The translations under genes were made by a program, and so were the position numbers. This document shows, in pieces, positions 4,169 through 4,495 of a stretch of DNA of 6,033 nt. Numbering within the stretch: the first letter of the stretch is position 1; the number at the start of each line of letters is the position of its first letter. The stretch is from a virus (Duplodnaviria; Heunggongvirae; Uroviricota; Caudoviricetes), in the IMG/VR virus record IMGVR_UViG_2563366955_000008, positions 1 to 6,033 of that record; one strand, given 5' to 3'. The notes under the pieces are model-generated. The model searched no databases. It saw only the letters and a program-made list of their open reading frames with translations, and was not told the origin of the DNA.

Positions 4169-4495
4169 ATGAAAAGACGCCTTTTACTACTTTTTCTGTT
4201 ATCTGTCCTGGCAGTGGGATGCTCGCAGCAAAAAGCTGATGAGCCCCGGCAATTAGTGACGGTGTATCCACGATATCCGGAATATGCTGCAGCAAATTAT
4301 ATCAAGGGGCTGGTTGAGGTTAAGTTCGATATTGGTGCTGATGGGACTGTGACACGGATCGTTTTTCTCCGCTCAGAGCCTCATAATTTGTTTCGTGATG
4401 AAGTGGTGAAGGCCATGGCGAAATGGCGATTTGAAAAGAATCGCCCCTGTCAGGGAGTGAAGAGACAATTTATCTTTACGCCGTCACGTCCTTGA
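4169..4495 (+). CDS. Outer-membrane-type lipoprotein consisting essentially of a TonB C-terminal domain (TonB_C-like), 108 aa; occupies the bor-like moron slot between Rz and cos
   Basis: SD AGGA 6 nt before ATG 4169. Signal peptide MKRRLLLLFLLSVLAVGC with lipobox and Ser at +2 (Lol-sorted in E. coli rules). Mature ~90 aa aligns by eye with the E. coli TonB C-terminal domain: YPRYPEYAAANYIKGLVEVKFDIGADGTVTRIVFLRSEPHNLFRDEVVKAMAKWRFE versus TonB [55 protein letters not shown]. Not similar to lambda Bor beyond the lipobox. Confidence 0.8.
   Translation: MKRRLLLLFLLSVLAVGCSQQKADEPRQLVTVYPRYPEYAAANYIKGLVEVKFDIGADGTVTRIVFLRSEPHNLFRDEVVKAMAKWRFEKNRPCQGVKRQFIFTPSRP

Follow-up and report, generated by a model that had tools for sequence, protein, structure and literature searches.

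The open reading frame (ORF) at positions 4169-4495 of a 6,033-nucleotide (nt) stretch of prophage DNA (IMG/VR record IMGVR_UViG_2563366955_000008, Caudoviricetes; hereafter the window) encodes a complete TonB C-terminal domain as its only domain, as judged by sequence profiles and a structural model, and its product is predicted to be exported, lipidated at Cys18 and sorted to the outer membrane according to the +2 rule. The window represents the late-gene end of a lambdoid prophage, and the ORF is a real, selected gene, as follows from a ratio of nonsynonymous to synonymous substitution rates (dN/dS) of 0.12, an invariant lipobox Cys and a wide occurrence. By analogy with inhibitory TonB fragments, we tentatively propose that this lipoprotein occupies TonB boxes or caps TonB without pulling, resulting in a partial tonB phenocopy; we place this possibility somewhat short of an even chance. 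The further proposal that this widespread prophage gene is a receptor-general exclusion device, which would protect lysogens from TonB-dependent invaders whatever transporter these use, is on present evidence unlikely, if worth serious consideration. The domain assignment is not new, the TonB-like nature of the product being already part of public annotation with the GenBank/RefSeq labels "TonB C-terminal domain protein" (phage 21), "TonB fragment", "partial tonB-like membrane protein" and "TonB family protein". None of these existing labels records the lipoprotein signal, and other short stand-alone TonB_C proteins of Enterobacterales are annotated only as "TonB family protein".

Signal peptide, tether and TonB C-terminal domain

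The same 327-nt coding sequence (CDS) is called by RefSeq in the near-identical prophage of Escherichia coli strain 7/2, which shares 99.8% identity with the window over positions 1-5341, and is also annotated in phage 21, where a ribosome binding site is marked at the position equivalent to 4159-4162. The ORF and its signals are arranged as follows.

4159..4162, plus strand: Shine-Dalgarno sequence AGGA, 6 nt 5' of the ATG, read from the sequence
4169..4495, plus strand: TonB_C lipoprotein ORF, 327 nt from ATG to TGA, 108 codons and stop, taken from the ORF list
4169..4222, plus strand: predicted lipoprotein signal peptide with lipobox A-V-G-C, the Cys18 codon at 4220-4222 and Ser at +2
4223..4243, plus strand: short flexible tether, residues 19-25 (SQQKADE), with low-to-intermediate model confidence
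4244..4492, plus strand: TonB C-terminal domain, residues 26-108, equivalent to E. coli TonB 153-235, from profiles, alignment to structures in the PDB and a model

The first 18 residues (MKRRLLLLFLLSVLAVGC) comprise a K/R-containing n-region, a hydrophobic core and the lipobox A-V-G-C ending in Cys18. By sequence reading alone, the features of a bacterial lipoprotein (basic n-region, h-region and a lipobox within the first 35 residues) are all present, and the signal-peptide segment exhibited a predicted local distance difference test score (pLDDT) below 50 in an AlphaFold2 model, as expected of a cleaved or flexible segment. An earlier interpretation made without database searches (the sequence-only reading) had already described a lipoprotein signal peptide with Ser at +2, which can be read directly from the sequence and whose Cys is invariant in the family detailed below. 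Its linker of about 12 residues had to be shortened to a tether of about 8 residues (19-25/26) between the lipidated Cys and the domain. The predicted mature protein consists of 91 residues.

Residues 23-103 align with E. coli TonB 150-230, with ORF residue n corresponding to TonB residue n+127. The Pfam profile PF03544 (TonB_C) matched with 49.2 bits against a cutoff of 24.6 (E=7e-13), TIGR01352 with 47.4 bits against a cutoff of 27.1, and E. coli TonB C-terminal domain (CTD) chains in the PDB were matched by sequence at E values of about 1e-14. The parts of the domain are the PxYP motif, the beta1-beta2 hairpin, the amphipathic helix and the beta3 edge strand (residues 94-103). Closer examination of the alignment revealed that Y36-P37 correspond to TonB Y163-P164, that the VKFD...DG hairpin and the F..EV..AM..WR helix are present, and that F53, F75, W86, F88 and F103 are the equivalents of the TonB aromatic residues F180, F202, W213, Y215 and F230. 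In the AlphaFold2 model, which was built from an alignment of 18 family sequences, pLDDT exceeded 94 at residues 31-100 and averaged 85 at residues 101-108, and the beta3-equivalent strand at residues 94-103 was kept. Superposition of the model on 1u07, 2gsk_B and 2grx_C gave root-mean-square deviations (rmsd) of 0.7-1.2 A, template modeling scores (by target) of 0.87-0.92 and identities of 38-40%, and this predicted structural match to the TonB CTD is far beyond chance. The homologous part (TonB 153-235) is the portion of TonB that is ordered in chain 2gsk_B of the BtuB:TonB co-crystal. Profiles, PDB alignment and AlphaFold2 model thus agree with the sequence-only reading in its TonB C-terminal domain with YP motif, VKFD hairpin and helix; two of the checks it had named, the PF03544 search and the superposition of the predicted domain by itself on TonB CTD structures (about 1 A rmsd), came out in its favor, while the identity is nearer 40% than the "roughly one third" it had estimated.

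The N-terminal transmembrane helix and the proline-rich spacer of TonB are absent, which had likewise been recognized correctly: the 108-residue protein has a signal peptide (residues 1-18) and a short tether (residues 19-25) in their place. The NCBIfam TonB equivalogs NF008080-NF008084 scored 45-69 bits, below their cutoffs of 265-448, and were matched only at model positions of about 150-240, i.e. their C-terminal 80 positions. Since transmembrane helix and proline-rich spacer are both missing, ExbB/ExbD cannot energize the lipoprotein. In summary of its likeness to the E. coli TonB CTD (residues of about 150-239; 1U07, 2GSK chain B and 2GRX chain C), the domain shares the fold, the PxYP motif, the core aromatic residues, the helix and the beta3 edge. 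It differs in that the protein would be lipid-anchored at the outer membrane whereas TonB is anchored in the inner membrane, in lacking R158, Q160 and R166, in ending at the equivalent of TonB residue 235 and in falling into a separate clade.

Family, spread and genomic position

An exhaustive profile search retrieved numerous proteins, 100-135 residues in length, that are made up of no more than a signal peptide and a single TonB_C domain, and the family members nearest to the ORF possess a lipobox. Proteins with the same architecture and 31-46% identity were found in Salmonella, Klebsiella, Raoultella, Enterobacter, Rahnella, Erwinia/Pantoea and Gibbsiella, and homologues overall come from at least eight genera of Enterobacterales. 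In an alignment of 14 sequences (Escherichia, Klebsiella, Salmonella, Raoultella-type, Gibbsiella, Rahnella and Erwinia/Pantoea) the lipobox Cys was invariant and the +2 residue was never Asp (Ser here; S/T/A/G in homologues), while across the family the tether varied in sequence and in length (8-17 residues). E. coli TonB is identical at 15 of the 16 invariant or near-invariant domain positions (P153, P161, Y163, P164, A167, G174, V176, D181, G186, P198, F202, A209, W213, E216 and P220), and the family therefore conserves the TonB core. A rough neighbor-joining tree without support values placed the lipoproteins in a clade apart from enterobacterial TonB CTDs; this separate clade, together with the identity of about 40%, rules out a recent capture of a host tonB gene.

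A scan of species-representative genomes with a narrower family alignment yielded six loci. Related short TonB_C proteins with an ordinary, non-lipobox signal peptide were observed in Pantoea agglomerans and Serratia marcescens, so that soluble periplasmic stand-alone TonB CTDs also occur naturally. A gene for a DUF1440/YagU membrane protein recurred near family members: it adjoins the chromosomal TonB_C lipoprotein gene of Raoultella (8738-9301 of the locus examined), is located upstream of the holin gene in a Klebsiella phage with a TonB_C lipoprotein (2232-2858 of the locus) and lies directly between antiterminator Q and holin genes in a Klebsiella prophage with such a lipoprotein (1027-1653 of the locus). 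This recurrence may be coincidence or co-capture.

E. coli harbors two variants of the gene, the proteins of which are 72% identical. Between them dN/dS was 0.12 at a dS of about 1.5, with similar values for the signal peptide and the mature part. The gene was present in 1617 of 5426 complete E. coli genomes (about 30%), including UTI89 and ATCC 25922, with up to four copies in one genome; it was at least 99% identical in 1202 of the carrier genomes and 60-80% identical in 392. Truncated or frameshifted copies of the gene occur as well. The identical ORF is found in the classical phage 21, in ev017, Perceval and three ECOR-derived phages, and the second variant in Stx1a phages and JLK-2012. 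A Klebsiella phage encodes a 41% identical relative, and 176 viral contigs of IMG/VR contain a relative.

The genomic position of the gene, for which the relevant features of the window are given below, was constant.

1223-1438: P21-type holin
2370-2903: phage lysozyme (endolysin)
3385..3858, plus strand: Rz i-spanin (PF03245), the constant upstream neighbor of the TonB_C gene
3611-3796, plus strand: Rz1 o-spanin (PF06085), embedded in Rz
3869..4168, plus strand: upstream non-coding stretch travelling with the gene
4587..4611, no strand assigned: 9-bp GC-rich hairpin (AGGCGTTGT...ACAACGCCT), about 90 nt past the stop codon
5447..5992, plus strand: Nu1 terminase small subunit

All 80 viral contigs inspected exhibited the gene order Rz, (bor), TonB_C gene and small terminase subunit, with bor being located on the opposite strand between Rz and the TonB_C gene in 13 of them and the terminase downstream being of either the Nu1 type or the HNH-plus-TerS type. 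The same slot is occupied by 38-41% identical relatives in Klebsiella prophages and the Klebsiella phage and by a 31% identical relative in a Rahnella prophage, and these Klebsiella and Rahnella carriers have quite different holins, endolysins and terminases. The right cohesive end of phage 21 aligns to position 5258, which places cos there, in agreement with the previously suggested location of the gene between Rz/Rz1 and cos. That location had also been equated with the slot in which lambda carries bor. The region is indeed the same, the strand is opposite and there is no relation to Bor, but the gene is not there instead of bor: the two are side by side in phage 21, and the 13 contigs mentioned above have both, which makes it a neighbor of bor and not a substitute. 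The absence of any sequence relation and the additional presence of bor in phage 21 also rule out that the product is Bor itself. The likeness to Bor/Iss of lambda is that of a small outer-membrane lipoprotein encoded by a moron between the lysis genes and cos, while the sequences are unrelated, the strands opposite and both genes coexist in phage 21.

Proposed inhibition of TonB and alternative explanations

A transporter's TonB box is bound by beta-augmentation, as an added strand next to beta3 of the TonB CTD, and TonB residues around position 160 also lie against it; the conserved PxYP segment of the lipoprotein adjoins this contact region. Its short tether would hold the domain within a few nanometers of the inner face of the outer membrane, where the periplasmic domain of ExbD, and probably peptidoglycan as well, would be beyond its reach. 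The likely partners would then be the TonB boxes of transporters (FhuA, BtuB, FepA, Cir and others) and the incoming TonB CTD, and the exposed beta3 edge strand is the part most likely to engage in TonB-like beta-augmentation. The most economical reading is that of a non-pulling competitor for TonB boxes. Alternatively, the domain could cap the beta3 edge of TonB itself, as in the 1U07 dimer, which would need fewer copies because TonB is limiting. Precedent for such inhibition, on which the sequence-only reading had based its candidate decoy against TonB-dependent phages and colicins, does exist: according to papers citing Howard, Herrmann, Stratilo and Braun (2001), the periplasmic TonB fragments 33-239, 103-239 and 122-239 inhibit TonB-dependent transport. 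As described there, these engineered fragments resemble the lipoprotein in being an unanchored C-terminal portion of TonB in the periplasm, but were soluble, at least 118 residues long and overexpressed, while the lipoprotein is natural, would have 91 residues when mature and would be lipid-tethered.

Irreversible adsorption of T1 requires TonB-dependent energization, and the expected effect of the lipoprotein would be a reduced entry of TonB-dependent phages (T1/phi80 type), of group B colicins, of TonB-dependent microcins and of siderophore-linked antibiotics, at the expected cost of a lower siderophore and B12 uptake. The protein could be made in lysogens from an unrecognized promoter, or from the late transcript only. 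Llp of T5 and Cor of phi80 and N15 are phage-encoded lipoproteins of the outer membrane that target FhuA, a TonB-dependent transporter, from the periplasm. The TonB_C lipoprotein would share with these the small size, the location and, as proposed, a transporter target approached from the periplasm, but its fold is unrelated: neither Llp nor Cor was among the matches in the PDB or BFVD, and no such family was among the Pfam and PHROG hits. A search of the BFVD viral structure library gave no match at E<=1e-3. Furthermore, Llp and Cor are specific for FhuA, the receptor of the phage itself, whereas the TonB_C lipoprotein would be receptor-general. The J tail-tip proteins of its carriers are lambda/434-like and differ between carriers, and the known receptors of lambda/434-type J tips are porins. 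Exclusion of the phage's own kind is ruled out by these variable, porin-type tips, which fit a general, heterotypic function. The constant position of the gene in E. coli, Klebsiella and Rahnella prophages whose lysis and packaging modules differ, the low dN/dS and the presence in 1617 of 5426 genomes were counted in favor of the proposed inhibition as well.

Several observations weigh against this proposal and, indirectly, against the strong form of the decoy reading, which is otherwise borne out in its architecture and precedent. The TonB_C gene was always located on the late-gene strand (80 of 80 viral contigs inspected), a consensus scan detected no sigma-70-like plus-strand promoter upstream of the ORF, and no Fur box was found upstream at up to 3 mismatches. 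With late-strand orientation and no promoter of its own detected, expression in lysogens, which a decoy needs, is in doubt, and the product may be made only in lytic growth, where a TonB block brings little obvious benefit. The TonB-box-recognition residues are not conserved, R158 being replaced by T/K/S, Q160 by Y/L/H and R166 by Y in the family, but beta-augmentation is mainly backbone-mediated. Among the carriers, UTI89 with its siderophore-dependent virulence and ATCC 25922 with its use in quality control of cefiderocol susceptibility presumably have working TonB-dependent uptake, which makes it unlikely that lysogens are blocked strongly and constitutively; the effect may be weak, conditional or linked to induction. 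Size is a further concern, as soluble TonB fragments of less than about 96 residues are poor inhibitors in what Koedding et al. reportedly described in 2004, and the mature lipoprotein would have 91. Some family members are chromosomal and non-prophage, in contexts unrelated to phage or iron. In Raoultella and Enterobacter the gene has yagU as one neighbor and, at its other flank, small envelope-protein genes and a lacZ/lacI pair, and chromosomal members also occur in Pantoea and in an islet of Salmonella Choleraesuis, which suggests that the architecture may have a cellular role borrowed by phages. The PADLOC anti-phage defense models contained no matching family at E<=1, and a full-text search of open-license PMC papers and bioRxiv retrieved no functional study of the gene.

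Part of this evidence is shared by the explanation that the domain serves a different outer-membrane-proximal partner, making the protein a lysogenic-conversion or envelope lipoprotein like Bor/Iss or Lom, which we regard as rather improbable. Possible partners would be an envelope protein (Lpp, OmpA), a periplasmic ligand or, if the domain is surface-exposed, a host factor. TonB_C domains can bind ligands other than TonB boxes, an example from the fold matches being the FusB CTD in complex with ferredoxin (9hi3); the loss of R158, Q160 and R166, chromosomal homologues situated among small envelope-protein genes and not iron genes, the adjoining bor gene of phage 21 and the presumed retention of TonB-dependent functions by carriers all point in the same direction. 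However, the conserved core is almost wholly that of TonB, the beta3 edge is kept, none of the searches made pointed to an alternative ligand, and the short tether probably keeps the domain off peptidoglycan. Restriction of the protein to the Q-antiterminated late transcript, with a role around lysis and not in lysogens (for instance in shutting TonB-dependent traffic in the infected cell or in modulating the envelope before spanin action), would account for the slot after Rz/Rz1 and the late strand, which are invariant in the 80 viral contigs and in the Klebsiella and Rahnella prophages, for the failure to detect a promoter and for the filing of PHROG 1267 under "lysis". Such a role seems quite unlikely, since the lysis-terminase junction is a general hot spot for morons and houses bor too, a full canonical set of holin, endolysin and Rz/Rz1 is present, family members also exist as lone chromosomal genes and no mechanism ties a TonB CTD to lysis.

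The lysis category stems from phrog_1267, which is the TonB_C lipoprotein family (E=5e-43 over the full length) and is labelled "Rz-like spanin". Apart from this label and the position of a lipoprotein gene adjoining Rz, little speaks for a spanin component: canonical Rz and embedded Rz1 (PF03245 and PF06085) are already in place, the globular 83-residue TonB_C domain does not resemble a short proline-rich o-spanin, and a C-terminal transmembrane segment, and hence a u-spanin, is missing. We consider this identity extremely improbable. The TonB CTD fold and the presence of canonical Rz/Rz1 contradict the label, which is probably an annotation error that will spread via PHROGs-based pipelines. 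It is also very improbable that the gene is a non-functional remnant of a phage-captured tonB, as the labels "TonB fragment" and "partial tonB-like membrane protein" and the truncated or frameshifted copies might imply. This explanation is effectively refuted by the dN/dS of 0.12 at a dS of about 1.5, the precise fusion of a lipoprotein signal to a complete domain with a Cys invariant over several genera, the identity of at least 99% in 1202 genomes and a clade separate from enterobacterial TonB CTDs (in the neighbor-joining tree without support values).

If the proposed inhibition of TonB is true, the lipoprotein would be the first natural dominant-negative TonB and a case of host-domain mimicry that disables the energy coupling common to all TonB-dependent transporters and not, like Cor or Llp, one receptor, which makes the proposed function a new variant of the periplasmic-side blockade of transporters by phage lipoproteins. 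It would change phage host range, with consequences for the design of phage-therapy cocktails for E. coli and Klebsiella, as well as colicin and microcin competition in the gut, would impose a trade-off between iron acquisition and protection, and could alter susceptibility to siderophore antibiotics. A gene of the classical phage 21 that about 30% of complete E. coli genomes carry, with no label beyond "TonB family protein", would thereby obtain a function, and the protein could be a natural template for inhibitors of TonB systems. If TonB is not inhibited, a family of stand-alone TonB_C lipoproteins would still be without a known role.

Flanking sequences and neighboring genes

The DNA shared with phage 21 extends from 3869 to cos. 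Of the non-coding stretch upstream of the TonB_C ORF, positions 3869-3988 (120 nt) belong to a common post-Rz block that is 92-97% identical in many Stx phages without the gene, and 3989-4168 represents the module-specific part. In a comparison of the two ORF variants, the region from 3869 to about 4035 showed higher conservation than the coding sequence. A 45-codon ORF at 4014-4151 is probably no gene, given its indels and divergence between the two variants, and no Rfam family matched in the region upstream of the TonB_C ORF. The best promoter-like site of the region lies antisense within the TonB_C ORF (4323-4296, minus strand) and combines TTAACC, a 16-nt spacer and TATAAT with an upstream TG (10 of 12 matches); the number of promoter-like sites in the region is no higher than expected by chance. 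Downstream, the hairpin at 4587-4611 separates the TonB_C ORF from a minus-strand ORF (4618-4971) that converges on it, and the 145 nt around the hairpin have a folding z-score of -2.4. The hairpin was not called by a terminator scan and may be a bidirectional terminator.

The genes for a complete ABC importer of iron/manganese, sitABCD, lie beyond the side tail fibre genes of phage 21 (21967-25416 of its record), which gives this phage a means of metal uptake independent of TonB in addition to the TonB_C lipoprotein. There is no general link between importer and lipoprotein, as the strain 7/2 prophage has the TonB_C gene without sit genes.

At the other end of the window, positions 1-105 (plus strand) matched the Rfam family STnc100, a gammaproteobacterial small RNA, with 73.8 bits against a gathering threshold of 47; the match covers model positions 96-206, the 5' part being cut by the window end. 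Just upstream of the lysis cassette, a minus-strand ORF of 111 amino acids (131-466) has a counterpart in the strain 7/2 prophage that bears the annotation of an IraM anti-adapter protein. A plus-strand ORF of 297 amino acids (1440-2333), situated between the P21-type holin and the endolysin, matches DUF1327/YdfR (E=1e-40) only within about its N-terminal 100 residues, with no Pfam match in the other 200; in strain 7/2 the corresponding gene is labelled an incomplete YdfR pseudogene. Two overlapping small plus-strand ORFs (3027-3242 and 3167-3388; 71 and 73 amino acids) are situated between endolysin and Rz; neither has a Pfam match, at least one looks membrane-spanning, and RefSeq annotates shorter hypothetical CDSs there.

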